Assembly (NCBI GenBank): GCA_016715865.1
Contig: JADJXM010000006.1
Span: forward strand, 65,486-129,485
From: Acidobacteriota bacterium
Lineage (GTDB): Bacteria; Acidobacteriota; Blastocatellia; RBC074
Direction of reading: 5' to 3'
DNA length: 64,000 nucleotides
Shown: piece after piece, positions 1-56,724 of the stretch
Position numbering within the stretch: the stretch's first letter is position 1
Layout of the letters: every line of letters starts with the position of its first letter
The notes under the pieces: generated by a model
What the model saw: the letters and a program-made list of their open reading frames with translations, nothing else
Told to the model about the DNA's origin: nothing
Databases searched by the model: none
Translations under genes and position numbers: made by a program

Positions 1-422
1 ATGCGGACGGGCTGCCCGATGTGTTGAGCAGCTCGGCTCACGGGGTCGGCATCTGGTGGCACAAACAGACGAAAACGACCGATGGCCAGAAAAAATTCAT
101 TAAGCATCTAATCGACGACAGTTTTTCGCAGTCGCATTCATTGGAACTTGCCGACATCAATCGCGATGGGCTGCCCGACCTGGTTACGGGCAAGAGGTTC
201 TGGGCTCATGGGCCGAAAGGAGATATCGAACCGAACGCTCCGGCGGTTCTGGTCTGGTTCGAGATGAAGCGCGGCAAGGACGGCGTTCGCTGGATCAAAC
301 ACGTGATCGATGAGGATTCAGGCGTCGGGACGCAGTTCGCCATCGCCGATCTCAACCGCGACCGCAAACCGGACATCGTGACATCGAACAAAAAAGGCGT
401 TCATGTCTTTATTCAAAAATAG
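1..422 (+). CDS. FG-GAP/ASPIC-UnbV-type repeat protein, C-terminal fragment (5' end outside window)
   Basis: Frame-3 ORF is open from the window edge. Recurring DxNxDGxxD-like motifs (ADGLPDV, ADINRDGLPDLV, ADLNRDRKPDIV) are typical of FG-GAP/VCBS repeats. Confidence 0.5.
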   Translation, partial: ADGLPDVLSSSAHGVGIWWHKQTKTTDGQKKFIKHLIDDSFSQSHSLELADINRDGLPDLVTGKRFWAHGPKGDIEPNAPAVLVWFEMKRGKDGVRWIKHVIDEDSGVGTQFAIADLNRDRKPDIVTSNKKGVHVFIQK

Positions 423-487
423 ATGTGGAGTGCGGCGGCCCGGCGCCGCTTTGGCACTGTACCTGGAAGAAATCAGAATGGACTACA

Positions 488-518
<31 letters not shown>

Positions 519-2141
519 ATGCACATCCAGCGTAAAAAGATCTTCGATGTCTGCGTCATCGGTTCAGGCGCGGCGGGCGGATTTATGGCCAAAGAGCTGA
601 CCGCAGCCGGCGCCGATGTCGTCCTGCTGGAAGCCGGAGCGAAAGGGCGTCTGGAAGACCTGGACATTCACACTCCGCCATACGATCTTCCGAAAAACGG
701 ATACGGATTCTACAAGCAGCGATCGCTCTATCCCGACGACATCTCGCGAAGAATCGAATACCGCGGTGACCGCATCTCTGTCGATCGCATCCGCACGCTC
801 GGCGGACGGACGTTTCACTGGAACGCGGCGAGCTTCAGATTCTCGGCCGACGACTTCCGCGAACATTCCCTGCACGGAATCGAGGAGGACTGGCCGCTGA
901 GCTACGACGAACTGTCCCCGTTCTACAGCCACGTCGAACGCGAGATGCACGTTTTCGGAACGCGGGAAAAACTTGAGGTGCTGCCGGACGGTGATTTCGT
1001 GGCCGAGTCTCCGCGACTGCGCTGCTCCGAGGTGATCGCGCAGAGCAGGCTGGCGCGCAAGGGGATCAGACTGATTCCGACGCGCAAGGCGGTGCTCTTG
1101 AAAGGGAAGGCAGGGCGCGGCGGATGCCATTACTGCGGCCACTGCATGGATGTCTGCGATGTCCGCGCGGTCTGGTCGAGCGATATCACTCTCATCCCCG
1201 AAGCGCTGGCCACCGGCAAACTGACTTTGAGGCTCAATGCGCTCGCCCGTGAGATCACAGTCGATGATAAAGGTCTGGCTTCCGGAGTTTCGATAATCGA
1301 CAGGCGCACCGGCAAAGAAGATGTGATTCGCGCGCGCGTTGTCGTCGTCAGTTGCGCTTCGATCGAATCGGCCCGCCTGCTGCTCAATTCGAAGAGCGAA
1401 AAATACCCGAACGGCATCGCCAACTCGAATGATCTGGTCGGAAGATACCTGGGAGGCCATCTCAACACCAGCGCCTTTGGCTGTCTCAAAGACCTGGTCG
1501 GAAAAGACGTTTTTACAGGAGACGGGGCGACCGATCACGCCTACATCCCTCGCTTTAATCACCTGCGCGGAGGGCGCAGAGATTATGTCGGCGGATACGG
1601 CATGCAGCTTAACTACCAGAACTGGCATTGGCCGTACCACGCGAAATCGGTCAGTGGTTTCGGACAGGATTACAAGCGGCGCGTCCGCGATCTTCACCCG
1701 GCGACTCTGCTGGTCGGCGGATGGGGCAAGGTCGAGCATCGCCCGGACAATCGCGTCCTGGTCGATCCGAAGAAGGTGGACAACTACGGCATCCCAATTC
1801 CCATCATCCAGTTCACCTGGGGAGAGAACGATCTGAACCTGTTCCGCGAGATGCGCGAGAGTGTACTTGATGTGCTCGATACGTGCGGAGTCGAGATGAT
1901 TGTCAAGGGAAGCGACGGGCCGGGAGGTTTCGCCAGCCACGAAGTCGGAACCGTCAGGATGGGCAATGATCCAAAGAGTTCGGTCCTCAACTCGTTCTGC
2001 CAGGCACACGAGGTCAAAAACCTCTTCGTCGTCGACGGAAGCAGTTTTACTACTTTTCCGGAAAAGAATCCGACACTGACGATCGCCGCGCTGGCCGTGC
2101 GCAGCGCCCGCTATCTGGCTGATCAGCGCCGGAATTTGTAG
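519..2141 (+). CDS. GMC family FAD-dependent oxidoreductase
   Basis: N-terminal Rossmann motif DVCVIGSGAAGG...LLEAG and a C-terminal GMC signature region. The ORF opens at 423, but ATG 519 (MHIQRKK) gives an N-terminus like the paralog at 52328. Confidence 0.8.
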   Translation: MHIQRKKIFDVCVIGSGAAGGFMAKELTAAGADVVLLEAGAKGRLEDLDIHTPPYDLPKNGYGFYKQRSLYPDDISRRIEYRGDRISVDRIRTLGGRTFHWNAASFRFSADDFREHSLHGIEEDWPLSYDELSPFYSHVEREMHVFGTREKLEVLPDGDFVAESPRLRCSEVIAQSRLARKGIRLIPTRKAVLLKGKAGRGGCHYCGHCMDVCDVRAVWSSDITLIPEALATGKLTLRLNALAREITVDDKGLASGVSIIDRRTGKEDVIRARVVVVSCASIESARLLLNSKSEKYPNGIANSNDLVGRYLGGHLNTSAFGCLKDLVGKDVFTGDGATDHAYIPRFNHLRGGRRDYVGGYGMQLNYQNWHWPYHAKSVSGFGQDYKRRVRDLHPATLLVGGWGKVEHRPDNRVLVDPKKVDNYGIPIPIIQFTWGENDLNLFREMRESVLDVLDTCGVEMIVKGSDGPGGFASHEVGTVRMGNDPKSSVLNSFCQAHEVKNLFVVDGSSFTTFPEKNPTLTIAALAVRSARYLADQRRNL

Positions 2142-2306
2142 GGAAAGTTTCCAGCTAAGAAGTTTCCAGTTGTCAGTTTCCAGTTTCCAGTATTCGAGAT
2201 TGCAAATGTAATAACTTTTCAGATATACGCAATCAACAGGATACTTCTTTCACTGGAAACTGGAAACTTCTTCTAACTGGAAACTTCTTTCACTGGAAAC
2301 TTCCCA
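2142..2306. repeat. Hairpin element G1: imperfect inverted repeat with arms of tandem GTTTCCA(G) units around a roughly 45-nt unique core
   Basis: Left arm gtttccag...gtttccagtttccag, right arm ctggaaactggaaac...ctggaaac. Lies between the convergent GMC and lactonase genes. Confidence 0.7.
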
Positions 2307-2311
2307 GCTCT

Positions 2312-3479
<1,168 letters not shown>

Positions 3480-3483
<4 letters not shown>

Positions 3484-5225
3484 TAGCGCCAGCTTGTCAG
3501 ATCAGCACCTCGAGGCGCCGATTTTTTGATTCGTTCGAGAATCTTCGGCACGTACATCTGATTGTATCTCAGTCGTGACAGATGATTCGGCAGTGTCTGA
3601 TCGCCGTTCCAGCAGTGCTCGGCGCGATCTCCGTAATCGACCTCTCCGCCGTAAAACGGGTTCTTCGTCCCCTTGAGAAATTCCTCGACCAGATAGACGG
3701 CATTGTTGAGATAGTAGTTGTCCATATCGCCGCAATAGATATGAATCTTGCCTTCGAGTTTCGGACCGAGCTTTGCCCAGTCGCGTTTGAGGATGTGGCC
3801 GAGATCGTAGTTCTCGCGCCAGTATTCAGCGACCGATCGATCGATCTCTCCGGTCATCTTGTCCCAGATCGGTTTCGGATAGCCGTCCGCGCCGGCGGGC
3901 GAATAGACGGCCTGCCAGATATCCCACTGATCGCCCGAGCGGCTTTTGGTCCCCAGCGCCAGCTCGCGGTGATTCATCTCTTCGAGCGTGGCCGAAACGT
4001 GCCCCAGGTAATCGCGATGCCCCGGGCGCGGCGTCCGCTTCCATCTGCTGTCGAGGTAATAGGCGTTCTTGTCTTCATAAATATTGACGACGGTGTAGGC
4101 CCGAAAGTCGATCGGATCAGGACAGGCCGCGAAACATCCGTTGAACATATCCGGATAGAAGACCTGAGTCGCCAGGGCCTCCCAGCCTCCAGTCGATCCG
4201 CCGTAGGTGAATCGTGCCCAGCCCTCTCCGATGCCTCGAAACTTCTCCTCGATATACGGGATCAGCTCGTGATTGATGGCATCGCCATACGGCCCCAGAT
4301 TGGCCGAGTTGACGGCGTACGAATCATCGTAATATGGATTGGCGTGCTGGATTTCGATGATCAGAAACCGGGGATAGTTCGAGCCGGTCCATTCCTGATA
4401 GAACTTGTGTGCATATTCCTGAACAATGCGGTTGTATCCCGAAAGCTTGAACCTCTCGCTGTAATCGGGCTTTAGATCAGGGTCCGGAGGGGTTTCGCGA
4501 AAACCTCCGAAAGTGTATGGAAAATGGCCGTGGAAGACCATGAGCGGATAACGAGCATTTGGATGCGCATCGAAGCCCTCGGGCAGCAGAATGTTTGCGC
4601 CGAGGTACATCGGTCGGCCCCAGAACTCGCTCAGCTTTTTGCTTTGAATGCGGATATTCTTGATGTATTTCGTATCCTTCGGAGGCTCGATCCGGGGGAT
4701 CTCCTGATCGAGGATGATCGCGACGGTTTGAGCCTTTCGTCGATCTATCGTGATCTGAACGGGTTTGCTGTAGATGTTGCCCGGCGCAAGGTTCCAGTGC
4801 TGGCCTTCACCACGGTCCATCGGCAGTTTCACCGTATGGCCGTCGGCGCGGCGAAAAGTTTCATACTTGTGAAGCAGGGCCTGCACCCAGTAGGTTCCCG
4901 CCGGGACCCGATCGAGGCTTTTGACGGGGTAACCGAAAGCGCCGGCGTCGATCACCGCACGCTGTCCAGGTTTGAGACCGTCGACATCGATGCCGAATAC
5001 CTGCTGCGTCTTAACCGAATCGTTGATCTGCATCCGGGGTTCCTGCGATCCGTCGGTCGAAATGAGCAGCAGCAGTCTGCCGTCAAGCGGCGCTCGGCTG
5101 CGCTCGACCGGAAATGAGATCGCAAAGCTCACTGCCGATCGCTGCGCCTTCACCCCGCCCTGCTGCGCCAGCACTACGATCGACAAAGAAATGAGAAACA
5201 GAATTGTAAATCGCCTGAGCATCAT
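3480..5225 (-). CDS. Secreted alpha/beta-hydrolase, 'putative esterase' (enterochelin-esterase-like) family
   Basis: Signal peptide MMLRRFTILFLISLSIVVLAQ. GxSxGG nucleophile motif (GGSTGGW). A 4-nt ATGA overlap couples it to the downstream lactonase. The ORF is open to 5351, but the SD-supported start is ATGATG at 5225. Confidence 0.6.
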
Positions 5226-5231
5226 CGGATC

Positions 5232-5238
5232 TCCTTTA
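5232..5238 (-). promoter_or_regulatory. Shine-Dalgarno AAAGGAG, 6 nt upstream of the esterase start
   Basis: Minus-strand sequence gagTAAaggagatccgATGATG: stop codon of the upstream gene, the SD, then the start. Confidence 0.5.
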
Positions 5239-5697
5239 CTCAGCGATTCGCGTCGCCTGGTGGGCCACCATCTTCCAGTCTTCGCCGATCTTCGAATAGA
5301 CGTGAATGTAGCGGGCATTGGTATCGATCTTTGCTCCGCGTGCTGTGACATGCACGTCCCAGTGGCAAGTGACGACCGCAGTGTCTCCGTATACCTTGAT
5401 GCGCCGATCGTTGCGCGTCATCGATTCGTATTTGGTCTCGCCTGATCTGATCTTGGTGATGTAGGTCGCCTTGTCATCGACGCTGCCGTTCGAGTGGGTG
5501 TAGATCAGCGTATCGGCATAAATTTTATCGAGCCCATCGACATCCGATGCGACAAGCGCTTTGTCCCAGTCGTCTTCCAGTTTGAGAATCGTAGTTTCAA
5601 CATCGATCACCGGCATCTTCTCCTCCTTCGTCTGACAAGCGATCAGTAATTGAGAAACAACCAGAATTAACGCGGCGGAAAACAGATATTTTCTCAT
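5236..5697 (-). CDS. Lipoprotein with NTF2-like (SnoaL/DUF4440-type) fold
   Basis: Lipoprotein signal (LLIAC lipobox) and a small alpha+beta barrel-type sequence. Family assignment is tentative. Confidence 0.45.
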   Translation of the reverse strand: MRKYLFSAALILVVSQLLIACQTKEEKMPVIDVETTILKLEDDWDKALVASDVDGLDKIYADTLIYTHSNGSVDDKATYITKIRSGETKYESMTRNDRRIKVYGDTAVVTCHWDVHVTARGAKIDTNARYIHVYSKIGEDWKMVAHQATRIAE

Positions 5698-5717
5698 TGC
5701 GGGGTAACCTTTCTGAT

Positions 5718-5820
5718 GAGTTGAAAGTAGAAAGTTGAAAGTCAGAGCGCTTGAGGCCCGGGCGGGTTTCTAACCACCGCCGAATCGCGGTTCATACTTT
5801 CAACTTTTAACTTTCAACTT
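5718..5820. repeat. Hairpin element A1: arms gttgaaagtagaaagttgaaagt / actttcaacttttaactttcaac around a roughly 50-nt core
   Basis: Inverted tandem heptamers (GTTGAAA/AGTAGAA) between the lipoprotein start and the decarboxylase stop. Confidence 0.7.
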
Positions 5821-5822
5821 TA

Positions 5823-7241
<1,419 letters not shown>

Positions 7242-7288
7242 GATGATGAGTCCTGTTTGATAATGGAATCACGGGCGCTCGATGTCGC

Positions 7289-8181
7289 TCACGTTCTGAC
7301 AATCGATTCGACCGCGGCTCTGATGACATACCCTGAGCGATCGAGCGCGGCCCGCGCTTCGTCCGCCGCCGCGCCTGCATGAAGCATAACGATGGCGACT
7401 CGCAGATCCCAGTCTGCAGCCTCGAGCGTCCCGGCGGCTTCCATCTCAGTCACGCCGCACTCGGCCACGACGATTCCAATCGCCCGCTGCCTGAGCTTGA
7501 TATTACGGGTCTGCAGGTTGGTCATGCGATTGCCGGTGACATACCCGAGACGGACCATGGTCAAGGTCGACAGCATATTGAGCACCAGCTTTTGGGCTGT
7601 GCCTGATTTCAGCCGTGTCGAGCCCGCGATGACTTCAGGGCCGGGGACCGGCTCGATCGGAATCTCCACGGCTCGGGCCAGTTCCGTGTTTTGATTGCAG
7701 GTGACGCAGGCAGTCAGGGCTCCGATGCTGCGCGCATATTCTACCGCGCCGATGGTGTACGGCGTGCGCCCGCTGGCGGCGATTCCGACGACCACATCAT
7801 GCGCGGTCAGCTTCTTCGCCTGCAGATCTGTTGCCCCAGCCTCGCGATCGTCTTCAGATGCCTCGATTGACCTGTAACACGCTTCATATCCGCCGGCGAT
7901 AATTCCCTGAACCATCTCCGGCGAGACGCCGAAGGTCGGCGGACATTCTGAAGCATCGAGCACTCCGAGCCTTCCGCTGGTCCCTGTCCCAACATAAAAG
8001 AGACGGCCCCCACGCTGCAGCCTCTCGACAATGCCGTCGACCGCTTTAGCAACTGCCGGAAGGACTTTCTCGACCGCTTCGGCGACCTTTTTATCTTCGC
8101 TGTTGATGACCTGCAACGCCTCGAGTGTCGGCAATTGGTCGATCTGTGAAGTCGCTGGGTTGATCTGTTCGGTTGTCGTCA
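7289..8181 (-). CDS. murQ: N-acetylmuramic acid 6-phosphate etherase
   Basis: SIS domain with the GTGTSGRLG motif and a MurQ-like N-terminus (MTTTEQ...). The upstream ORF extension to 8272 merely reads through repeat G2. Confidence 0.75.
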
Positions 8182-8185
8182 TAAT

Positions 8186-8282
8186 TAGAAGAAGTTTCCA
8201 GCGGAAGAAGTTTCCAGTTTCCAGTGACACAAAGTTTCCTGTACCAACTGGAAACTGGAAACTTTCTCTCACTGGAAACTAC
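8186..8282. repeat. Hairpin element G2 (GTTTCCA-arm family)
   Basis: gaagtttccagtttccagtg ... cactggaaactggaaac. Confidence 0.7.
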
Positions 8283-9284
8283 TTATGATTCCAGAGTCAT
8301 AGCCTTGGCCATCATAGCGGCTCCGATGACAGGCGGATCGATCGGCGCAGCGACGACCGCTTTGGGAGCGGCTTCGCGAATCAGATCACGCATCGGATCA
8401 AGAATCAGATCACCGGCTTCGAAGACGCCGCCGACATAGGAAACAATGATTGTCTCCTGTGCCATGCGAAGCTGCTCGATGACTGCGATGGCCGCGCGCG
8501 CAAGCTCCTCAGCGGCATCCTTCAAAATCTGACGCGCGACCGAATCGCCATCCGCCGCGGCTTTGACAACGATCCGCGAAAGTTGTGAAATCATGGCGGG
8601 GACTTCACCCGGCGAGTCATATATCACGGGCGGAAGCTCGGGCGGAGTTGTAACGCCGAAATGGCGCAAAACCGGCTCCATCATACTGGTCGGCTCTCCG
8701 CGATAATCCCAGGCCATGACTACGGCTTCGAGCGCGCGCCGGCCGATGTAAGATCCACTGCCCTCATCGCCCATAGCCGGCCCCCATCCGCCGGCCCTTG
8801 CGAATCGACCGCGAGTGTTGATCCCGCACGCGATCGAGCCCGTCCCGGCAATGATCACGACTCCGGGCTGATTGCGGGTCGCTCCAGCCAGCGCAACGCG
8901 GGCGTCCGTTTCAAGCGTGATGTGGGGAACAGGCAATGCATTCTTCAGTGCCGAGAGCATACGGGCGTGATGTTCGGGATGCGAGACGCCGGCCAGACCG
9001 ATACATGCGGCCGTGATTTTCGTAACCTCGATGCCAGCCTGATGACAGGCCTCATCGACCGCAATCCGTACATGCCCGATCGCAGCTTCCAGTCCGACGC
9101 GGATGAAATTGGCCGCCTCGGCGCGACCTTCACCGCATACTCGATCATTCTCATCTACTATCACCGCGCGGCAATTGGTGCCGCCCCCATCTACCCCCAG
9201 CCAGTAGCTGAGCGGTTCTCCACCTTCTTCCTCTTCTGGTTCGTTTTTTGGCGGTTCTGTCAAAACTGTTTCTATCAAACCCAT
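8283..9284 (-). CDS. BadF/BadG/BcrA/BcrD-type ATPase (N-acetylglucosamine/MurNAc kinase-like)
   Basis: LGVDGGGTNCR phosphate-1 motif of the ASKHA sugar-kinase superfamily. Sits in a cluster with murQ. Confidence 0.6.
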   Translation of the reverse strand: MGLIETVLTEPPKNEPEEEEGGEPLSYWLGVDGGGTNCRAVIVDENDRVCGEGRAEAANFIRVGLEAAIGHVRIAVDEACHQAGIEVTKITAACIGLAGVSHPEHHARMLSALKNALPVPHITLETDARVALAGATRNQPGVVIIAGTGSIACGINTRGRFARAGGWGPAMGDEGSGSYIGRRALEAVVMAWDYRGEPTSMMEPVLRHFGVTTPPELPPVIYDSPGEVPAMISQLSRIVVKAAADGDSVARQILKDAAEELARAAIAVIEQLRMAQETIIVSYVGGVFEAGDLILDPMRDLIREAAPKAVVAAPIDPPVIGAAMMAKAMTLES

Positions 9285-9619
9285 ATTCTTTAACAGGCTC
9301 AGGATAATTTAATCCGGTTTGGAACCGGCAGGAAAGCGTTCCGTATGAGGCGCTTTTCGGCGACGCCGTCCTTTGAAATTTTCAGGGCTCTTTAGTGAAT
9401 AATCCGGATGGAACGGTGTCTTTCCTTCATCAGATCATCATCATACACTTGCCATGTCGAGAAAGAAAACCAAAAACTTCCTAAAATATTTCGTTTGAAC
9501 TCTGACGCCCGTGACTGTATGATTTGAAAAGGAATTCGGCTGATTTGCCTGGAATTCGTGATTCGTGCGCTTACCCCCCTTTATCTACACCCGGAGAATC
9601 ACCTATCTTCCCAGATGGC

Positions 9620-11377
<1,758 letters not shown>

Positions 11378-11384
11378 GATTAAG

Positions 11385-11459
<75 letters not shown>

Positions 11460-11464
11460 AATGA

Positions 11465-12471
<1,007 letters not shown>

Positions 12472-12518
12472 TGACGTGCCTCCGACACGATATTCGCTAT
12501 GCATTCTAAATCAGACTT

Positions 12519-13070
12519 ATGAAATTTAGCACTGTGAACAGGATAAGCAAGGGAGATGAAGGCAGGTTTCCAGGCAAATTGCAGCTTGACGACCCGGTCT
12601 CGATGCGTTACAAAAGGATGGAATTTTTGTCGATCCGGATCCGCTCCATTCCCTCTGGACGCGGATCAGAGAAGGTGCCTCTGCGTTTACTTCAAAAGAA
12701 CAAAAGGCAGGAGTCTGGCTTGCGAAACATACCGCGCTTTTGCTCCCTTGACGGATTCACCGAGTTGAGTTCAGCGCTCGGGGGTGTCGCGCTGCGAACG
12801 CTTGAGCCGTTCGATACCGTTTGTGCGCGGACATTGAATAACGACTATTACATCTTCCTGATTGAACCTGAATCGGGCAAGGCTCTGGTTCAGGGAGGCC
12901 GTTATTTCTCACAGCCCATCGAAGCCACCGTCAGCGGGTCCACCTTTGGCGGATGCATGCTCAAGATGGGCTGGCTCGGCATCGGCCTGCACATCGAAAT
13001 CTGCGCATCAGGCCAGCGCATCGTCACCTCGCCGGTCCAATCGCTTCACATCGAATATGCCGGCAACTAA
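12519..13070 (+). CDS. Hypothetical protein (weak PilZ-like resemblance at best)
   Basis: ORF only, with no confident motif. It is convergent with vanZ. Confidence 0.25.
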   Translation: MKFSTVNRISKGDEGRFPGKLQLDDPVSMRYKRMEFLSIRIRSIPSGRGSEKVPLRLLQKNKRQESGLRNIPRFCSLDGFTELSSALGGVALRTLEPFDTVCARTLNNDYYIFLIEPESGKALVQGGRYFSQPIEATVSGSTFGGCMLKMGWLGIGLHIEICASGQRIVTSPVQSLHIEYAGN

Positions 13071-13504
13071 CCCGCTTTTCTCTTCGCGTATAGTCGAATC
13101 AGTCCCAGTATCACCAGTCCGCCAGTCACGTCGATCGCGCTGTCGATCAATGATCCGTATCGCGTAGCTGTAAAGGTCTGATGGAATTCATCGAGCAGCG
13201 CATACGAGACAAGTATGATCAGCGTTCCGATGAACCAGCTCTGACGCCAGAGATCCCGCGCCCGGCCGCGAAATGCTCTGAAGAGCAGAGCCGCCAGTAT
13301 TCCATATTCAGTGAAATGGGCTGCTTTTCGAATCAGAAAATGGATCCGGTCGAGAGCGGGTGGATTCAGATGGATATCGAAGAAGCTGAGAATCGATTCA
13401 AGATACGATCCGGTATATTCGCCTGAGAATGTATCGGTCGAAAAATAGAAGATCATTGCCATCCAGGCCAGTGGAGGCAGCCAGTATCCGAGCATCTGTG
13501 TCAT
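13067..13504 (-). CDS. VanZ-family membrane protein
   Basis: Four transmembrane segments and the RKAAHFTEYG motif characteristic of VanZ-like proteins. Confidence 0.65.
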   Translation of the reverse strand: MTQMLGYWLPPLAWMAMIFYFSTDTFSGEYTGSYLESILSFFDIHLNPPALDRIHFLIRKAAHFTEYGILAALLFRAFRGRARDLWRQSWFIGTLIILVSYALLDEFHQTFTATRYGSLIDSAIDVTGGLVILGLIRLYAKRKAG

Positions 13505-13521
13505 TAAAGTATTTCGATCGA

Positions 13522-14406
<885 letters not shown>

Positions 14407-14430
14407 ACTCGATTCCCGTAACCCGGCGAA

Positions 14431-16526
<2,096 letters not shown>

Positions 16527-16563
16527 ATATCGATTATTCCGTTCGTAAGATAATAGGACAGGC

Positions 16564-17148
16564 CTATCTGGCTTTGCTCAGCTCCTGTCCGGCTCGCTCG
16601 ACCAGTTTTTTATCGTCTTCAACCGTCAATTCGCGACGGATCATCTGCTCAGCCAGCTCGACCGACTTGGTAGCCGTGAATTCCCTCAGATCAGCCAGGG
16701 CGATCTGACGGGCCGCGTCGATATCGCGCACCGCAGTCGCTCGAACCTTCTCAAGATCGCGCTGAGTCTCGGTCTGAATCCGCTCCCGTTCAACAATCGA
16801 TTCCCGTTCAGCCTGGGCCTTGATCTCGCCGATCTCGATGTCCAGCCGGTCAAGCCGCGCATCCAGATCGGCCATCTTCGCTGCTGCTTCGTCCTTCTCT
16901 CTTGCCGCGCGCTCGAGCGTCTTGCGCACATCCGCCAGTCGCGACTGGAAAAAGCCTCGAATCGGCTTGCGGACCAGAAAGTACATAACCCCGACAAAGA
17001 TCGCGAGGTTGACGGCCTTGGCAATGCCCGGATGAATTCCGCCTCCGCCGCTCAGCAAAAACAACGGTTGTATCTCTAAAAATGACATTGGAATATAAAA
17101 CGCTGCGAATGAAACGTTCCGGGACCAGAGACTATCAGTTGTCTTCAT
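16564..17148 (-). CDS. atpF: F1Fo ATP synthase subunit b
   Basis: Single N-terminal transmembrane segment followed by a long charged coiled-coil. Position in the operon supports the call. Confidence 0.7.
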
Positions 17149-17154
17149 AAAGCC

Positions 17155-17634
<480 letters not shown>

Positions 17635-17756
17635 GGCAGAATTCGCCTCTCCTCTCGTCCCGATACCCCGACAGAGTCCTTCCAGAGTTTACTTTGTGAT
17701 ACCGCTGATAGGGTCGAAATCTGTCGGTTTAGTTAAGCGAGAATAATTAGCACAGA

Positions 17757-17780
17757 AATTCACAAAGTGTCAACCTGACT
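17757..17780. repeat. Candidate attL-like direct repeat: aaattcac...cacaaagtgtcaac
   Basis: A 14-nt exact match plus an 8-nt flank match to 27741..27767 (a 7-nt indel between them). It bounds the low-GC region that contains both integrases. Confidence 0.4.
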
Positions 17781-18240
17781 ATGATGAACCCTGCATCGTC
17801 CTATGACGTTTTATGTCGTTTTATTGAGGTTTACAGCCGCAGGGAGAAGCGGCAATGACGGTTTAGGACGGTCTATGTAACGGTAATTTGCCTCTGAGGA
17901 GCCTCAGAGAATTGCCAACGCCCGAATCAAATCATCTGAGAAGGGGCGAAAGATCAAGTTTCGTCCCTTCAGGGCGTTTTCAGCCTGGATGACGTTCACC
18001 GCGTCAACCAAGCCTAACCAAAAACGCGAAGTGACCGCGATGCTGGCTGATTTAATTTTATCAAATTCTGGTAAATCTTCCAGTCTTCCCTTACCGCTTC
18101 GCCTTTTATTGAAAGGGCGATCATGAGCCACAAACAGAAAATTTCTTTTGAATCAGAGCATAAGGCTTTTTCTTATCTCTTCGCAGGATTGATAACCCTT
18201 TGCGCCTTCCCTGTCCTGGCCTATCACTACGCGACCACGC

Positions 18241-18861: not shown

Positions 18862-19512
18862 CAGCGCCGGCGATCATCGCGGCAAGACCGCCGCGCAATC
18901 TTCAATTCAAGTCATTAATGACCAGCCGCGAAATATCTCTTCCACTGGCATTAGTGCCAGCCCAGGCAGAAAGTCAGATATTGGCATTAGTGACAATCAA
19001 GGGATGAAGTCACCCAGACCGAAGACCGGACCGAGGCCGCCGAAACGAAAAGGCTATATATGGTCATCACACGGCGCGGGATGGGATTGTCGAAGAGACG
19101 AACGGATAAACGGCAAGGGGCCGCGTCCGTATGTCGGACATCTCAGCAAAGCCGAATTTGACAGGATCAGGTCAGAAAACAAGACCCCGGCAACCCTTCA
19201 AAAAGCCTTTGAGCTTTGGATTGAAGAAAAAGAAAAATCGAAAGGAATCAACCATGAGCGAAACAATGACCAATGACCAGTCAGCCCAGAATCAACCGCC
19301 TCTTTCACGCTGTCTTGAGAACCTGCAAAAAGCCCTTGCGGATGTCGTCTGTCATCCAGACCTGTCAGGCGATGCGAAGTCATTTCTCATAGACTTCTGC
19401 AAAGTCATTTCTGAAAAGGCTTCTGAATCCGTCAAAGGGGAAAAAGCTTAGTGCCGCAGAATCTAGCAATAAACCAATTGTTGCCACATGTGGCAGAAAA
19501 GGGAAGAGGATC

Positions 19513-20655
19513 ATGGCCAGATCAAAACAAGGATCAGTAGTCAGGCGGGGCAAGTTGATTTATGCCCGTATTCGATGGACGGAGCGAATAGGCAATCAAT
19601 CTGTCACCCGCGAGAAGCTTGAGAGAGTCATGACCATTTCAGAAGGCCGGGAACAATGCAAACAGATGTTGCGCGACCTGGAAGAGAAGGGACAGACCAT
19701 CTTCGAGACACAGCGAATGACCTTCAACGATCTGGCCATGATTTACTCTGAAAGAAAACTCATTCCTGCCCAGTATCACGATGACAGGAAGATTGCAGGC
19801 TTGCGCTCCCTGGCGTCTGCAAAAGTCCAGATGCGATCACTTCAGGCTTACTTTGGGACATTCACTTTGAAAGAGATCACCCATTCAGACCTTGAACGAT
19901 TCAAGCTTCTGAGACTGGGAAAGACGACCAGGCGCGGATCGAGGCCGTCAATCGCAACCGTAAACAGGGAGCTTGAGCGAATGCGGGCCATGCTTCGATT
20001 TGCCGTCCGTCAAGGCTATCTTTCAAAATCGCCCTTTGAAATGGGCGAGTCACTTATCAGCAAAGCCGATGAACGAATGAGAGAGCGATTATTAACCATC
20101 GAGGAAGAGTGCCGATTGATTGAAGCTTGCACCGGCAACCGCGCACACTTGCGGCCTATTATCATTTGCGCGATTGATACGGGGATGAGGCGCGGCGAAA
20201 TCTTGAAATTGAAATGGTCTGATATGAGCCTGGATGATGGCATCATTAAACTGAGAGCGACCACAACAAAGACAGGGAAGCGGCGAATTATCGGTATCAC
20301 ACCCAGGCTTGAAGCCGAGCTTCACGGCCTTTGGGATCAGAGCTTGATGATTGATGAAGCTCTGGTCTTTGGAATCAAGAGCGATATCAAGAGATCGTTT
20401 GCGACCGCTTGCAGAATCGCGGGAATCAGCGATTTACGCTTTCATGATCTAAGGCACAGAGCAAGCCTTGATTTATTGCAGGCGGGCTTGTCCGAAGAAT
20501 TAGCGATGAAGATTCTAGGCCATACTCAGAGATCGACTTTCAGCCGGTATATCAACCCGGATCATAGAATTGCAAGAGAAGCGGCAAAGGCATTGGAAGT
20601 CTTACAGACCGCAAGAAATCAAGAGCGCATACATGAAAAAAGTAAATGTGCATGA
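19513..20655 (+). CDS. Tyrosine-type site-specific recombinase/integrase
   Basis: C-terminal catalytic box R...HDLRH...Y (RFHDLRHRASLDLLQAG...STFSRYINPD). Confidence 0.85.
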   Translation: MARSKQGSVVRRGKLIYARIRWTERIGNQSVTREKLERVMTISEGREQCKQMLRDLEEKGQTIFETQRMTFNDLAMIYSERKLIPAQYHDDRKIAGLRSLASAKVQMRSLQAYFGTFTLKEITHSDLERFKLLRLGKTTRRGSRPSIATVNRELERMRAMLRFAVRQGYLSKSPFEMGESLISKADERMRERLLTIEEECRLIEACTGNRAHLRPIIICAIDTGMRRGEILKLKWSDMSLDDGIIKLRATTTKTGKRRIIGITPRLEAELHGLWDQSLMIDEALVFGIKSDIKRSFATACRIAGISDLRFHDLRHRASLDLLQAGLSEELAMKILGHTQRSTFSRYINPDHRIAREAAKALEVLQTARNQERIHEKSKCA

Positions 20656-21175
20656 GCCTGAAGCGGCTTTATATCTGGTTTACTCATATCAGAAAGCTGA
20701 ATTTCATCAGGCTTTAGAAAAAGCAATTTTGAGTGCATACAAGAAAGAATCTCCCAAATCACCAATCAAAGTACTGGACACTGAAAAAGCCATCATTTCA
20801 ATTAAACGAGTCTTGAGGGAGTTTTCGGCAAGCAACAAAAAGCGGGGAAGAAAAACGGATCAAAGAGCAATAAAAGCAGACAGCTATTTCAAAGTCGCAC
20901 TAGAAGATGCCAAGTTGACAATGGCCAAATTTAAGCTAATGGACAATCAAAGCCGTCAAGAGTTTTGGGAAGAAAAAGTCTGGCAAAAGCACGAACGCGA
21001 AATAATCGAAGACGAATTATTTTTCGATGGCAGTAAAGCCCTTGTAAGAGGAAAAGATGCTTTATTGACTGAAAAGCGAAGGATCGAGGATTTAGTCAGA
21101 CGATGGAACATGGCGAAGCCACGGCGAGCAATGAAAAGAAAAGGTCAACCACGAATAAATTCTGAAAAGAAATAA
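20633..21175 (+). CDS. Hypothetical Lys-rich protein
   Basis: ORF only, AT-richer codon usage. Confidence 0.3.
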   Translation: MKKVNVHEPEAALYLVYSYQKAEFHQALEKAILSAYKKESPKSPIKVLDTEKAIISIKRVLREFSASNKKRGRKTDQRAIKADSYFKVALEDAKLTMAKFKLMDNQSRQEFWEEKVWQKHEREIIEDELFFDGSKALVRGKDALLTEKRRIEDLVRRWNMAKPRRAMKRKGQPRINSEKK

Positions 21176-21244
21176 TTCGCCGAATAAATTCAAGTCCGTA
21201 ATTTATTCGCCTTCATTTTTGGTAAGGTCGAAGTCGGAGGGATC

Positions 21245-21697
21245 GTGACGATGAAGAGAAACGGAATCCTGACAATTCGAAGAATGAAGGAATGCGAGAT
21301 CAACCGCCTTACTGGTAAGGAGTCTTGCAGGGAAGTAAACCCGAAAAAGGTTATGACCCTTCAACAAGCCGAGACCGCAAAGCAAAGAGCCGAGCGTTTC
21401 GCCTTGAATGTCCTTCGAGATGAAGACCTGGCTGATGACATCGCCGATGAAAGTCTTGAAGACTGGATCGAGCGCAAGGGCATCACAATCAAAAACCCGC
21501 AAAAGGAGAATAAACCGATGGCAACAAGACAGCCTTCAAAAGCCGACCTCGAAAACAAAATCGCCGAACTCGAAGAGGAATTGAGCGAGTACAAGGAACG
21601 CGAAGAGCAGATGTGTGAGCTTCTGGGGCTCGAACCGGAAGACGAAGATGAAGAGATCGAGGACGAAGACTTCGAGGAAGAAGACGAAGCCGCATAA
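21245..21697 (+). CDS. Hypothetical protein with coiled-coil and poly-acidic C-terminus
   Basis: ORF only. The C-terminus is EDEDEEIEDEDFEEEDE. Confidence 0.3.
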   Translation: MTMKRNGILTIRRMKECEINRLTGKESCREVNPKKVMTLQQAETAKQRAERFALNVLRDEDLADDIADESLEDWIERKGITIKNPQKENKPMATRQPSKADLENKIAELEEELSEYKEREEQMCELLGLEPEDEDEEIEDEDFEEEDEAA

Positions 21698-21712
21698 CGG
21701 GAGAGGTGGAAC

Positions 21713-22087
21713 ATGGCTTACTACACAGGATACTCAACGCCCGTTCCAGCCGATAAAACCGGTCATTGGTCAGACGTTGAATCTCTCCCTGGCGCATACG
21801 CCCCAGGCTTCGAATCTTCGCCTTATTACGTCGGGCCAGCCGGGGCGCGAACCTGGATACCAAACCAGCCTCAACAGCAGGCACAGCAACCGCCACAGCT
21901 TCAGGATCACCCTTCGACTTCTCAGGATACCTGTCTGGGTATGGGCCGGAATCGGATTACTTGTAGTTGTGATTCTGGTCAAGAAGAAATGACGATTGAT
22001 TTTACGGGGACATCTGCAAGTTTGCCGACTCGAAGATGTCCCCGCCCCCCCCACACCGATAGCAGCATCGGCGGGGAGAGATTCTAA
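21713..22087 (+). CDS. Hypothetical protein
   Basis: ORF only. Confidence 0.25.
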   Translation: MAYYTGYSTPVPADKTGHWSDVESLPGAYAPGFESSPYYVGPAGARTWIPNQPQQQAQQPPQLQDHPSTSQDTCLGMGRNRITCSCDSGQEEMTIDFTGTSASLPTRRCPRPPHTDSSIGGERF

Positions 22088-22478
22088 CACCTTCTCCCGC
22101 CTAAAGGTAGATACCTGGCCGATGTAGCCATCACTAAACTTTTACCAAGTATGCTCGAAGACCTTTTTCAATCTGACCCAGAATTAGCCTTGTATATCGA
22201 GCGTCAACGGTTTCAAGCGTCGATGCGCGATCAAAGCCGCTTCGAAAGCCTTAACGAAATTCTACCGCGAATGATGCAATCAATAATGCCTGACGCCGTT
22301 TCGACCGAACCGGAAGAGGGCATGGCTTTTTATCAGCTTGGATGAAGGCCGCGCATTCGATTATCAACCGGACGCTATCCGGTATTGATTCGATCACGGC
22401 GCGGGCCTTCATTCGGATTGACTGCGGAAAAATCGCGGCCTTTTCCGGGACTATTCCGGTAATCATCGAGGAAAAACT

Positions 22479-22904
22479 ATGACCACAAAAACGAGACAGA
22501 CCAGGAGCCGCAATAATGCAGATCAGAAGAACAAGGGCGAAATCGTTTCCTTCGATGTCTTCCTTAGTGAAGACCCATTCGAGGCGGGCAAGGAATCGAA
22601 GAAAGAACCCCTGGGGCCGATCACCTTCAGTCAAAACTATCTGAAAGACGCAGCGCAGCAATTCGGCGGCGGCGAATATTACTACTTCCTGCCACGACAT
22701 GCAGACGGGAGTTTCGGAACCGGCAAGACTCTTTTCTGTCCCAAAGTCGATCAAGAAGCCATCGAGGAGCCATTGACCGAGGATTACATCGAGGCCGAAA
22801 CAATGACCGGGCCGGATATCCGGCGAATTATCCGCGAAGAGATGTCATCGAGCGTCCGCAATCCTCAAAACGGGCATCATTCCTCAACATCATCGAGCTT
22901 GTGA
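22479..22904 (+). CDS. Hypothetical protein
   Basis: ORF only. Overlaps the next ORF as ATGA, which suggests an operon. Confidence 0.35.
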   Translation: MTTKTRQTRSRNNADQKNKGEIVSFDVFLSEDPFEAGKESKKEPLGPITFSQNYLKDAAQQFGGGEYYYFLPRHADGSFGTGKTLFCPKVDQEAIEEPLTEDYIEAETMTGPDIRRIIREEMSSSVRNPQNGHHSSTSSSL

Positions 22905-23566
22905 CGGCCATAGAAAGAATTGAAAACATGACCGCCGAAGATGAACCCAGGGATAAAACATCTGAGATCATCGGAACTCTGAAAGGGCTTGAAGAGATCA
23001 GAGGAATGTTTTCATCCAGGGAAGAGAACCCCAGGCCGATTATCGAGAACAAACCACTGACGACCGAGGCCGCATTGTTGAAGCTTATATCTGAAGACCC
23101 TATCGCCCTGGCCGCAGCCCGCGATCGTCTCTTAGGAAGCGAAGGCGAATCGTTTAGTTTCATGCAGCTCATACCCGCGATCATGCCAACCGTGGAAAGA
23201 ATCGTCTCTTCGATCACTGACGCGATGAAGGCCGCGAATCCGTCACCGGCGATAAATCAACCGGCGACCATTCCGCAGCCTGGCGGCGATCAGCCATCAC
23301 CCGCGACAGCCTTCAATCCCACGCAGCCGCCACAAGCGCAAGCACCCGGCGATCTGAGCATGCAGGCGGCATACGGGCGGGTTTTTAATTCCTTCCTCAA
23401 CGCCCTGGCGACGAATGCAGACGTTGAACCTATCGTCACCGCCTTTGATTCATTCTGCAATCTCTTTCCAGAGCATGAATTGATGATCGATGGCTTGATG
23501 ACACAACCGCCTGAAATGGTCATCGGATTTTTGAATCAGGCTTTGCCACAGGCCGCGAATGTTTGA
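22901..23566 (+). CDS. Hypothetical protein (Pro/Gln-rich linker)
   Basis: ORF only. Confidence 0.35.
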   Translation: MTAIERIENMTAEDEPRDKTSEIIGTLKGLEEIRGMFSSREENPRPIIENKPLTTEAALLKLISEDPIALAAARDRLLGSEGESFSFMQLIPAIMPTVERIVSSITDAMKAANPSPAINQPATIPQPGGDQPSPATAFNPTQPPQAQAPGDLSMQAAYGRVFNSFLNALATNADVEPIVTAFDSFCNLFPEHELMIDGLMTQPPEMVIGFLNQALPQAANV

Positions 23567-23675
23567 ATGCGCCGCATGCCATCGATTGGATCAAGAGACT
23601 TCAGGAAGCATACACGAAGGAACCGGACGGGCAGCCTGACGCTGAACCGACCGAAGCAATGAAAGGGGCTGCTTC

Positions 23676-24292
23676 ATGAAAGTCATCATCGGTGCGGGCG
23701 GATCGAGTCAACCTGGATGGATCAGCTTCAATCAAGACGACCTGGATATAACCAGGCTTACAGACTGGGCGAAACATTTTTCAAAGGCATCTATTGATTG
23801 CATTGTCGCCGAACATGTCTGGGAGCATTTGACGATGGAGCAAGGATTCATCGCAGCGGTCAATTGTTGGCTATATCTCAAGCCTGGCGGAAATCTGAGA
23901 CTGGCAGTCCCAGACGGCCTTCATCCAAGTTTCAATTATTTCAATTGGGTGAAGCCTGGCAATTGGATCAATGGAGACGACCACAAGGTTTGTACACGTA
24001 CCGAAGCCTTGAGGGAATCCTCAAAAGGGCATTGTTTCAATGCACCTTGAAAGAATACTTCGATGAGGCAGGGGAGCTTCATATAGACCCCTTGGACTAT
24101 GACCGGGGATATATCCGGCGATCAGGGTTTAGCCTTTGGGCCGGAATTTTAAGCCCGATCGTTGGAACGTGGTTTACGTCTCTTGTCATTGATGCTCGAA
24201 AAATGGGGATGGAAGAGCTTTGCCAGGCGACAGGGATGAAGCGTGCAAGCTTCAGGCGTTTCGATTTTGATTTAACGACACCTGGGATATAG
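23676..24292 (+). pseudogene. Class I SAM-dependent methyltransferase (Methyltransf_11/23-like), frameshifted
   Basis: ORF 23676..24050 carries the AEHVWEHL...YLKPGG motif II/III region. The expected C-terminus (LYTYRSLEGILKRALF...) continues in the +1 frame (ORF 23798..24292). Confidence 0.4.
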
Positions 24293-24344
24293 GCCGCGAC
24301 CTAAAAAACGAATAGCGGCCAATTCTGGCGAAATTTTCAGGCAA

Positions 24345-24395
24345 AAGAAAACCGCCTGCCGAGTTTTCGAGAAGCGGCAAGCGGTTTTAAAGGAA
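24345..24395 (+). terminator. Terminator-like hairpin
   Basis: aaaaccgcctgccgag...aagcggcaagcggtttt: a GC-rich stem flanked by A/T runs. Confidence 0.3.
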
Positions 24396-24501
24396 TAAGC
24401 TATGGCAAATAATACCACACTCTTAGAAACCACCACAAAAGAAAACAATTCTCATCGAAGACCAGATACCAACCGCCGACGAATTATTCGGGCCTTCATC
24501 A

Positions 24502-26066: not shown

Positions 26067-26161
26067 CCGTCGCACAATTCGCACAATTCGCACAATTCAG
26101 TAAATTTTGTGCGAAATAGCGAATTGTGCGAATGTGCGAATTGTGCGACGGGTTCTTAGTA
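26067..26161. repeat. Hairpin element C: (CGCACAATT)x3 arms
   Basis: ccgtcgcacaattcgcacaattcgcacaattc ... gaattgtgcgaatgtgcgaattgtgcgacgg. Confidence 0.7.
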
Positions 26162-26211
26162 TTACAATTTTAGATAATTATTAATAAGCACTTATTTTCT
26201 AAGGTTGCCTG

Positions 26212-26559: not shown

Positions 26560-26617
26560 GCCGTGATAAACTTGGGCCGCTTCTTCTTCCTGCGGCCACA
26601 TCGAAGGAGCATTGAGA

Positions 26618-27684: not shown

Positions 27685-27740
27685 ATGCCTCTATAGAGCC
27701 TCTTGGGTAAAGAATATTTGGCTTTTTTCTTGGAATTGTC

Positions 27741-33187: not shown

Positions 33188-33205
33188 TTAGATCTGGAAG
33201 AAATT

Positions 33206-33366
33206 AATCGCAAAGCCGCAAAGCAGGCAAAGATTGCTGTAATATCATGCCGCCAAAGGGCAAAGATTTATGGTGATATTAATATCCGAATTATTGCCCA
33301 CTTGGATATAATTCGAAAACTGATCTTCCCTCTATATCTTTGCCCCTTTGCGGCCTCTGCGATTAA
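33206..33366. repeat. Element K1: GCAAAG-repeat inverted arms around a conserved, roughly 95-nt core with an internal hairpin
   Basis: About 88% identical to 48712..48920. The core is ggtgatattaatatccgaattattgcccacttggatataattcgaaaactgatcttccctctatatctttgcccctttgcggcc. Confidence 0.7.
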
Positions 33367-33452
33367 CTTTTTTCCAGTCTTGAATACAAGAAAATTTAGT
33401 TAACAAAGTGTTAAAGTTCTTTGAAATCACAGGAAGATTTCTTGCCATTGAT

Positions 33453-35487: not shown

Positions 35488-37407
<1,920 letters not shown>

Positions 37408-44338: not shown

Positions 44339-44385
44339 ATTTCATTCAAAACAGGCAGAATAAAGGAGACGTGTAAATAGTTTGT

Positions 44386-44518
44386 GGTTTCCAGTTTCCA
44401 GCATCCAGTTTTCAGAAGATTGCCCCTTTCTTTGCATGCGTTCTGAAAACATTGAACTGGAAGTTGCCCCGCAGGTATGTCAATCCTCCGGAAACCGGAA
44501 ACTGCAGACTGGAAACTT
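44386..44518. repeat. Hairpin element G3 (GTTTCCA-arm family, compound)
   Basis: ggtttccagtttccag ... ccggaaaccggaaactgcagactggaaac, with an inner inverted repeat ccagttttcagaa/ttctgaaaac. Confidence 0.65.
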
Positions 44519-47707: not shown

Positions 47708-47852
47708 TAGAGTTTCCAGTGGTAGTAGTTTCCAGTTTCCAGTATTCTGAATGGCGCACAGTTAATTTCAGAGAGCAAGGTTGTGACGGGTATTGAAAGC
47801 GGATATAGAGAAGCCACTGGAAACTGGAAACTTCTTCTTCCGGAAACTATTC
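47708..47852. repeat. Hairpin element G4 (GTTTCCA-arm family)
   Basis: gagtttccagtggtagtagtttccagtttccagta ... ccactggaaactggaaacttcttcttccggaaac. Confidence 0.7.
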
Positions 47853-48711: not shown

Positions 48712-48920
48712 TAATCGCAAATCGCAAAGGAGCAAAGGAGCAAAGGAGCAAAGATTTTAAATCGCAGGCCGCAAAGCGGCAAAGAATTTTTGGTGATATG
48801 AATATCCGGATTATTGCCGACCGGATATAATTCGAACACTGATCTTCCTTATATATCTTTGCCGCTTTGCGGCCTTTGCGATTTAAAATCTTTGCTCCTT
48901 TGTGACCTTTGCGATTAAAT
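48712..48920. repeat. Element K2: second copy of the conserved core with (GCAAAGGA)x3 arms
   Basis: See K1. The arms aatcgcaaaggagcaaaggagcaaaggagcaaagattttaaatcgca... are mirrored by ...tgcgatttaaaatctttgctcctttgtgacctttgcgatt. Confidence 0.7.
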
Positions 48921-56677: not shown

Positions 56678-56724
56678 AACTGGAACGCCAACCTCCGGTC
56701 GGCATGCTTACACAATATTGATAA

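Follow-up and report, generated by a model that had tools for sequence, protein, structure and literature searches.

What are the intergenic hairpins, with arms of tandem GTTTCCA units, that recur in a 64,000-nucleotide stretch of a soil bacterium of the Acidobacteriota (assembly GCA_016715865.1, contig JADJXM010000006.1, positions 65,486 to 129,485; the whole stretch is hereafter called the window), and what might they do at the ends of genes? An initial annotation of this DNA had located four of them and regarded them as part of a hairpin system acting as terminators or as elements resembling REPs (repetitive extragenic palindromes) or MITEs (miniature transposable elements with inverted repeats). 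We found all four in their places, and homologous copies in relatives. The reading that we prefer, to which we give a probability of roughly one half, is that the elements are dispersed small non-coding palindromic repeats, similar to the STRR (short tandemly repeated repetitive) hairpins of cyanobacteria, to REPINs (REP doublets forming hairpins) and to MITEs, with a REP-like role at the 3' ends of transcripts. Each is built of two inverted arms of a short tandem unit around a variable core.

Tandem-unit hairpins of the window

The arm sequences are non-random. The motif AGTTTCCAG has 22 matches in the window against 0.41 expected, 21 of them inside the four GTTTCCA-type elements (family A), and the 15-mer GTTTCCAGTTTCCAG, searched with at most one mismatch, has 7 matches against 0.00 expected. 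Polarity within the A elements is invariable, the left arm always carrying + strand copies of AGTTTCCAG and the right arm - strand copies. The arms are composite rather than plain runs of heptamers: an outer single AGTTTCCAG is followed by a purine-rich spacer of 6-8 nt (..AGAAG..) and then by an inner double AGTTTCCAGTTTCCAGT. Tandem Repeats Finder (TRF) reports a period of 7 for both the A family and the AGTAGAA-type B family, and a higher-order period of 17 nt for the A arms.

The window holds ten tandem-unit hairpins, the four A elements and six others, which cover some 1.3 kb or about 2% of its length (Table 1). Three further arm families had been proposed, and all three are present, but only one is heptameric: AGTAGAA/AGTTGAA (B, three elements) has period 7, whereas TCGCACAAT (C, one element) has period 9 and GCAAAGG (D, two elements) period 8. 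Every element folds as one long hairpin, with a stem of 30-45 bp and a loop of 20-90 nt. The minimum free energy (MFE) lies between -47.2 and -56.3 kcal/mol in the A family (z-scores of -4.4 to -9.3) and between -44.6 and -58.6 kcal/mol in the B and C elements, and z-scores range overall from -4.4 to -11.3.

Homologous cores at non-orthologous sites

Two relatives were compared with the window: L119 (from GCA_964493645.1), 90-95% identical in nucleotide sequence over window positions 2275-10853, and L120 (CP065005.1), 76-81% identical and syntenic over positions 3-17815 (17.8 kb). By its MurQ and Omp85 homologues, the window belongs to a Blastocatellia-like member of the Acidobacteriota. Assembly GCA_964493645.1, which also contains the loci L035 and L039, is labelled 'uncultured Heliobacteriaceae'; as it is 90-95% identical to an Acidobacteriota window, this label is almost certainly wrong.

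The cores of the four A elements had been described as unrelated, which holds as long as they are compared with each other within the window; the A1 and A4 cores do, however, have homologues in elements of the relatives. A module of 28 nt in the A1 core (2192-2219; ATTCGAG[GA]TTGCAAAT[GT]TAA[CT]AACTTTT) is also present in the elements at the murQ site of L119 and, inverted, of L120. Element A4 shares 77% identity over its length, core included, with the A-type element at L039 6745-6900, which lies at a non-syntenic site near an efp-like open reading frame (ORF), in a locus that comes from the same metagenome-assembled genome (MAG) as L119 and has no long BLAST match to the window. This L039 element sits in the loop of a B-type hairpin. 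The cores of D1 and D2 are 87-89% identical, and two further copies of the D core occur in L120 (16055-16540). Finally, the composite arm plan is common to A1, A2, A4 and the L119 element, which indicates common descent. The shared cores at non-orthologous sites, the nesting and the D-core copies speak for dispersed copies that are homologous and can exchange or insert, and against independent local inventions.

Nesting was also seen elsewhere, heptamer hairpins lying in the loops of heptamer hairpins with another unit at L012 7654-7804 (labelled Chlamydiota) and at L061 5042-5166 (labelled Saccharibacteria), as they do in the case just described, over 6540-6930 of the close relative L039. A promoter in the shared core (TTGCAA-N17-...) was considered and rejected: A1, L119 and L120 do not share its -10-like hexamer, and L120 has the module in inverted orientation.

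Persistence and replacement at orthologous sites

The comparison of orthologous regions, a check that the initial annotation had itself named, came out in favour of persistence: four of the five sites compared keep their unit type in L119 and L120, and the fifth differs. The gap between the kinase gene and murQ holds a GTTTCCA hairpin in the window (3+3 units), in L119 (7+5 units) and in L120 (1+1 units, 92 nt); the L119 copy measures 234 nt, and the A elements of the window 97-165 nt. An AGTAGAA-type hairpin is found in all three genomes between the decarboxylase and SnoaL genes, and B-type hairpins flank tRNA-Arg on both sides in the window and in L120. The fifth site is the lactonase/GMC gap, with an A-type element in the window and two D-type elements in L120 (16055-16540); in L119 the outer arm at this site is identical to that of A1 and the contig ends inside the arm. 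A search with the HEAT-repeat protein gave no close orthologue (at most 47% identity), and hence no orthologous locus for A4.

Occupied sites nevertheless turn over rapidly, elements and cores being replaced though the surrounding L119 sequence is 90-95% identical. At the decarboxylase-SnoaL site, the whole element of the window, core included, is unrelated to that of L119, whereas the neighbouring murQ-decarboxylase gap, repeat-free and 47 nt long, is identical in the two. The unit variant at this site differs in both arms, being AGTTGAA/TTCAACT in the window as against AGTAGAA/TTCTACT in L120, and L119 likewise has a variant other than that of the window. The arms at the murQ site of L119 have grown independently, through block duplication, and their spacers (AAAAAT and TCTTCCA) have no complementarity between the arms.

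Might the hairpins instead be bound to their sites, as non-canonical terminators that evolve in place without mobility, with slippage building the repeats of one arm, quasipalindrome (template-switch) copying carrying them to the other, and mutational bias accounting for the likeness of the units? Such a process fits the conservation of site occupancy down to about 80% nucleotide identity, the unit type that is usually kept, and the unit variants that change on both arms between the window and L120; it is also consistent with our failure to find a transposase or a target-site duplication, and the bias towards period 7 across phyla (see below) agrees with the excess that has been reported for heptamer simple sequence repeats (SSRs; PMC4679880, PMC4692102). 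It accounts poorly, however, for a composite arm of single unit, spacer and double unit at four sites of the window, for homologous cores of 28-70 nt at non-orthologous sites, for an A-type element nested in a B-type loop, for the A and D types that occupy the same lactonase/GMC site in different genomes, and for the replacement of whole elements amid 90-95% identical surroundings. We consider evolution in place unlikely.

For dispersed repeats, we infer the following mechanism of spread. Slipped-strand mispairing, either of single units or of blocks of unit plus spacer, would lengthen and shorten the arms, copies would exchange cores and sometimes whole elements, and spread may rely on ectopic recombination at the shared arms, or else on a route of transposition that leaves no target-site duplication.

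Two arrangements in L120 are worth recording beside these sites. Between murQ and the decarboxylase gene (10880-11130), it carries about four tandem copies of a GC-rich palindromic unit of about 66 nt, a cluster resembling REPs or BIMEs (bacterial interspersed mosaic elements). At 6640-7110, a B-type hairpin and a 3' fragment of tRNA-Arg are duplicated beside the intact tRNA-Arg, which suggests recombination or duplication through the hairpin arms.

Position relative to genes and reading frames

Flanking ORFs were assigned by Pfam scans. Each of the ten window elements has a gene 3' end on at least one side; seven start 0-5 nt after a stop codon. The four A elements had been divided evenly between convergent and co-directional gene pairs; we find one convergent pair and three co-directional ones. 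A1 lies between a GMC oxidoreductase gene (+) and a lactonase gene (-), the only convergent pair among the A sites, and the co-directional pairs are BadF-type kinase and murQ (A2), TamB-Omp85 and Zn-ribbon (A3), and HEAT-repeat and outer-membrane protein (OMP) beta-barrel genes (A4). The tRNA-Arg gene is bracketed by B2 and B3. A2 fills the gap within an operon, abutting the stop codon of the kinase gene and ending 6 nt before the ATG of murQ. This position suits an element that forms or stabilises an RNA 3' end better than it suits a full terminator.

Table 1. Tandem-unit hairpins of the window, with their arms, folding and gene context (z, z-score of the MFE).
Element	Arm type	Coordinates	Arms and core	MFE (kcal/mol)	z	Context
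A1	GTTTCCA-type	2142..2306	5' arm 2142-2191 (4 units), core 2192-2251, 3' arm 2252-2306 (4 units)	-56.3 (2142-2290)	-7.5	Fills gap between GMC oxidoreductase stop (2141) and lactonase stop (2312)
A2	GTTTCCA-type	8186..8282	3+3 units, 20-nt core	-55.3	-9.3	Between kinase stop (8283) and true murQ start (8182), both genes - strand
A3	Degenerate GTTTCCA-type	44380..44518	Arms GTTTCCAGTTTCCAGCATCCAGTTTTCAG / CCGGAAACCGGAAACTGCAGACTGGAAAC	-47.2	-4.4	Between TamB-Omp85 stop (44338) and true Zn-ribbon start (44538)
A4	GTTTCCA-type	47708..47852	Arms 47711-47743 / 47816-47848, 72-nt core	-50.6	-4.7	Starts 2 nt past HEAT-protein stop (47705); upstream of OMP gene (47903)
B1	AGTTGAA/AGTAGAA-type heptamer	5719..5821		-44.6	-7.3	Between decarboxylase stop (5823) and SnoaL/DUF4440 start (5697), - strand
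B2	AGTAGAA-type	11275..11377		-52.7	-11.3	Overlaps stop of 572-aa ORF (11283), abuts tRNA-Arg 3' end (11384-11458, -)
B3	AGTAGAA-type	11467..11598		-58.6	-10.3	Between patatin gene stop (11590) and tRNA-Arg 5' end
C	TCGCACAAT 9-mer	26070..26148		-55.8	-10.8	3 nt past DUF3987 gene stop, in integrase-bearing island
D1	GCAAAG(G) (8-mer)	33198..33372	Conserved core of ~65 nt			Between GSDH-family gene stop (33453) and TonB-receptor start (33187)
D2	GCAAAGGA (8-mer, GCAAAG family)	48713..48910	D1-like core			Between convergent OMP and TonB-receptor genes

The elements also affect the reading of genes. Two genes were suspected of artefactual N-terminal extensions, and the homologues bear this out: murQ begins at 8182, its homologues being 294-297 aa long and aligning from residue 1, and the Zn-ribbon gene begins at 44538, its orthologues starting with MTK(Y/F)C. 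The A-type units leave all six frames open, and this accounts for the spurious extensions. Hairpins of this kind thus cause false N-terminal extensions (murQ, Zn-ribbon) and also break MAG assemblies, as where the L119 contig ends within an arm, so that they should be masked when genomes of Acidobacteriota and similar bacteria are annotated.

Every B-type unit, by contrast with the open A-type units, contains a stop codon (AG-TAG-AA, AG-TAA-AA, AGT-TGA-A, AGTA-TAA), both in the window (5719-5821, 11275-11598) and in the L119 and L120 orthologues; three tandem units therefore place stops in all three frames. At the B-type sites of L119 and L120 the stop codon of the gene itself lies within the first unit.

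Wider distribution and the period of seven

A scan of a nucleotide collection of 596 Gb, in which the source genome was not included, for a 15-mer derived from GTTTCCA gave at least 118 loci. About 1100 chance matches to a 15-mer are expected in 596 Gb, so that single matches mean little and only paired +/- matches are informative. We also examined the gap between the kinase gene and murQ in 80 metagenomic murQ loci. Some more distant lineages have hairpins with other units there (ACGGAAANN, CAGGAT, CACGAATNN, CACGGAT, GTTCAAG, AGTGACG, AAATCTC and GCAAAG in reversed polarity), and in many lineages the gap is empty (L128, L130, L132, L141, L143-L153). The gap between the Omp85 and Zn-ribbon genes is occupied by hairpins without heptamer repeats in L206 and L207.

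Tandem-repeat hairpins were then detected as pairs of TRF arrays over 1.3 Mb of loci from many phyla. Period 7 was found in 69 of 91 such hairpins, where dinucleotide shuffles gave about 0.4 period-7 hairpins per run, and 33 of these 69 are unrelated to the GTTTCCA seed by which the first 118 loci had been selected. They derive from classes of Acidobacteriota and from MAGs labelled Verrucomicrobiota, Poribacteria, Chlamydiota, Anaerolineae, Dyadobacter and others; comparable hairpins also occur in loci from Planctomycetota and Desulfobacterota MAGs. On a viral contig (L208), a TAG stop codon is followed directly by a GTTTCCA stem of 28 bp, with a loop of 5 nt and the tail TGTTTTG. Heptamers are reported to be an abundant class of SSRs in prokaryotes (PMC4679880; PMC4692102). 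The strong period-7 bias across phyla, and the conservation of the unit but not of the spacers, hint at a specific mechanism.

One candidate for such a mechanism is a protein acting in trans, for which the heptamers would form an array of binding sites, 7 nt or bp per subunit, with the hairpin geometry secondary; it could be a cold-shock or OB-fold protein on RNA or single-stranded DNA, or a protein similar to nucleoid proteins or transposases on double-stranded DNA. The conservation of the unit across genomes, while the spacers between units diverge and need not pair, the lack of strand asymmetry and the strong bias towards period 7 would all fit, and a report on CspB that is cited in PMC4679880 has this protein binding heptamer repeats, one protein per heptamer. 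Yet a single genome contains several unrelated unit families with periods of 7, 8 and 9, the many other units at the same site in relatives would call for many cognate factors, the arms are always inverted pairs of high complementarity, and no gene for a candidate protein is found in linkage with the elements. Of the explanations discussed here we find this one the least probable.

A broader proposal is that heptamer-armed hairpins form a distinct pan-bacterial class of elements, separate from both REPs with their REP-associated tyrosine transposases (RAYTs) and MITEs, and that a molecular reader or writer dedicated to them accounts for the 7-nt register. The taxa behind it are Acidobacteriota, Planctomycetota, Verrucomicrobiota, Poribacteria, Desulfobacterota, Chlamydiota and one viral contig. 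A protein whose subunits each bind one heptamer would be an example; another would be a hairpin-targeted copying or insertion process that places elements at stop codons and in the loops of other hairpins. On this proposal the STRR hairpins of cyanobacteria would belong to the system as one of its branches. We think this proposal rather improbable, somewhat more so than evolution in place.

Tests of mobility and of a role at transcript 3' ends

The elements persist directly past stop codons, where the transcript from either strand is predicted to fold into a hairpin of 30-45 bp. We infer an RNA-level function, most likely a REP-like one: the hairpin would block 3'-to-5' exonucleases and would pause or partly terminate transcription in both directions, possibly as a weak, factor-assisted terminator. 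Hairpins of this kind may define and stabilise the 3' ends of mRNAs and the flanks of tRNAs where canonical terminators are not enriched. Within operons, the compact fold would bring the upstream stop codon and the downstream start codon close together; given the position of A2, the folded element would there mainly have to be tolerated, or might even help coupling. The Acidobacteriota are abundant soil bacteria in which the punctuation of transcription is almost uncharacterised; if these hairpins do define 3' ends, they would be one of the main classes of terminators or stabilisers in this phylum.

Several results weigh against this reading. As regards mobility, a tblastn search with E. coli RayT of the window and the 1.3 Mb of loci gave no significant match in the window (E 0.63), and the only RAYT in the loci, in Poribacteria L044 (6939-7484), is flanked by classical GTAG REPs (GGTAGGTGCGGTT..AACCGCACC) and not by heptamers. 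No transposase is associated with the elements in the window and the loci examined, and neither a target-site duplication nor a common target was found at A1-A4 or at the copies in L035, L039, L118 and L119. As regards RNA, at least five T residues in the next 8 nt on either side accompany only 15% of 67 heptamer hairpins; with most hairpins lacking a U-tract and having long loops, intrinsic termination is doubtful. Sense and antisense folds are equally stable, so that nothing points specifically to selection at the RNA level, and the heptamer is conserved even though the L119 spacers (AAAAAT vs TCTTCCA) do not pair, which selection for pairing alone does not predict. Divergent gaps hold 11 of 55 hairpins against a baseline of 26% by crude ORF calls, and the preference for 3' ends is not significant in this count, in which arrays open in all frames confuse the crude ORF caller.

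The remaining tests of mobility and transcription were as follows. No ORF is enclosed by a pair of GTTTCCA arrays 0.3-6 kb apart in the loci examined, as an autonomous parent would be. Membership in the RAYT/REPIN system was rejected, no RAYT with heptamer flanks having been found in the window and the 1.3 Mb of loci. Canonical intrinsic terminators combine a short GC-rich stem, a 3-8 nt loop and, directly 3' to the hairpin, 7-9 nt of U-tract; none of the window elements has this form, and the terminator scan does not pick them up. Canonical terminator-like sites are themselves not enriched in the first 20 kb of the window (1-20 kb; 13 vs 19.6 expected). T residues after the stems are modestly raised, at 2.2-2.4 per 8 nt against 1.7 expected, and the short distance from stop codon to hairpin is consistent across loci. 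A strand-bias test (G-U vs A-C) gave similar MFEs for sense and antisense RNA and no consistent direction. In Rfam only two tRNAs of the window pass the gathering score and the hairpins match no family; at an E-value threshold, the sub-threshold matches are to eukaryotic miRNA-precursor models only, as for generic long hairpins.

Could the elements then have no function at all, as selfish or mutational by-products that are tolerated at the positions of least harm, close behind stop codons and at a distance from promoters? Their rapid turnover, the many relatives with an empty murQ site, the lack of a U-tract or of strand bias, and the intrusion of elements into ORF ends, where they create spurious extensions, all agree with this explanation. 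It does not readily explain why sites stay occupied across about 20% nucleotide divergence, why some hairpin is found at the same 3' ends even where it is not of the heptamer type, or why a tRNA gene is flanked on both sides in two genomes. We consider it about as unlikely as evolution in place, and retain dispersed repeats with a REP-like role as the preferred reading.

One locus met in the search for RAYTs deserves separate mention. The region 6850-7720 of Poribacteria L044 is a classical REPtron, and a separate heptamer hairpin (2456-2537) lies within the same 8 kb.

Comparison with known repeats

The closest described objects are the 7-bp STRR hairpins of filamentous cyanobacteria. STRRs, such as those between hupS and hupL in Nostoc/Anabaena, are intergenic tandem units of 7 bp that can form hairpins near the 3' end of the preceding gene, and roles in transcript stability, translational coupling or termination have been proposed for them (PMC2670836). 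The elements described here similarly consist of tandem 7-bp units in non-coding DNA, in arrays that can form a hairpin close to the upstream gene's 3' end. They differ in their host, an acidobacterium and not a filamentous or heterocystous cyanobacterium, in their units (GTTTCCA, AGTAGAA), in their composite arms with spacers, in core subfamilies conserved between sites, and in the comparable hairpins of several other phyla. The unit sequences of STRR1-3 also differ from those of the window elements. STRR hairpins reportedly vary in sequence while keeping their structure between close strains, and also lengthen a helix in RNase P RNA. If the hairpins described here do define transcript 3' ends, the 30-year-old question of the role of STRR hairpins becomes testable in a second, independent lineage.

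REPs and REPINs, as well as MITEs, can be regarded as functional and architectural analogues, the defining features of which (a tagged REP with its RAYT; a target-site duplication and a parent insertion sequence, IS) were not found here. The proposal of a system of hairpins with terminator-like or REP/MITE-like character is partly supported: location at 3' ends, recurrence in relatives and across phyla, over-representation of period 7 and REP/MITE-like behaviour are borne out, but neither termination nor strict membership among REPs or MITEs is. REPs and REPINs are extragenic and mostly follow coding regions, in gaps where the neighbouring genes are co-directional or convergent. Their two inverted arms, separated by a spacer of lower conservation, form a long hairpin; they leave no target-site duplication, occur as several families per genome, and have been proposed to stabilise mRNA or to act in termination (PMC3733652, PMC3116915). 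Two inverted arms around a less conserved spacer, in one long hairpin, are also what we observe; in contrast to REPs, which are self-palindromic over 20-40 nt with an unpaired GTAG/CGTC tag, the arms here are tandem 7-mer arrays without self-complementarity within the arm. GTAG does occur beside A1, A2 and A4 and in every AGTAGAA unit, but as a paired part of the stem rather than as a tag at the end.

MITEs such as Neisseria Correia/NEMIS, RUP, ERIC and Nezha are inserted next to genes and co-transcribed with them. Like these, the window elements have a non-coding core between terminal inverted repeats (TIRs), a length in the range of 70-300 bp and a strong hairpin beside genes, and homologous copies occur at non-orthologous loci (A4 with the L039 element at 77%, the A1 module with the murQ-site elements of both relatives, and D1 with D2 in their cores). 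Unlike bacterial MITEs (described in general in PMC3733652), they are not flanked by target-site duplications, the loci examined gave no parent IS whose ends match, and their TIRs are simple-sequence tandem units of varying copy number and not fixed repeats of 15-30 bp.

A last group of heptamers, the TAACTGA units of Beggiatoaceae, Cyanobacteria and Bacteroidetes, forms direct intergenic arrays, mostly just upstream of start codons, with one inverted case (PMC4679880). The common points are intergenic tandem heptamers across phyla and, for the B-type units, a stop codon in each unit; the elements here differ in always being inverted pairs and in following stop codons. We found no description of hairpins of this kind in Acidobacteriota, our coverage of the literature being incomplete.

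Other features of the window

Hairpin C lies in an island of about 19500-27700 that is probably an integrative element, with tyrosine integrases at 19513-20655 and 26956-27684, a DUF3987 gene at 24786-26066 and an HTH_17 gene at 26212-26559. Given this location, C may be foreign to the host's own system. Both D-type (GCAAAG) elements adjoin genes for TonB-dependent receptors. Their core of about 65 nt, also present in L120, has no match in Rfam and could be a small RNA or the core of a MITE.

A second class of intergenic hairpins is found at 426-514, 35354-35431 and 56681-56749. These are GC-rich, perfect or near-perfect palindromes with arms of 25-28 nt and loops of 19-35 nt; they are mutually unrelated and lie between co-directional genes, one of them after the SelB stop codon.

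Three genes near the elements are unusual in structure. The lactonase gene (7-bladed propeller; 2312-3483, -) is split into ORFs 2312-2914 and 2914-3483, the window being one base short near 3008 by comparison with L119, whereas L119 and L120 have the gene intact, with 384-387 aa; it is either a frameshift pseudogene or the result of an assembly error. The HEAT-repeat gene (46654-47705, +) is apparently also split, into ORFs 46654-46938 and 46947-47705 in different frames, where the best homologues have about 400 aa. Upstream of A3, a single ORF of 2377 aa (37205-44338, +) combines DUF748/TamB, POTRA and Omp85 domains in what resembles a TamB-TamA fusion, and several genes are called in its place in the relative L206.

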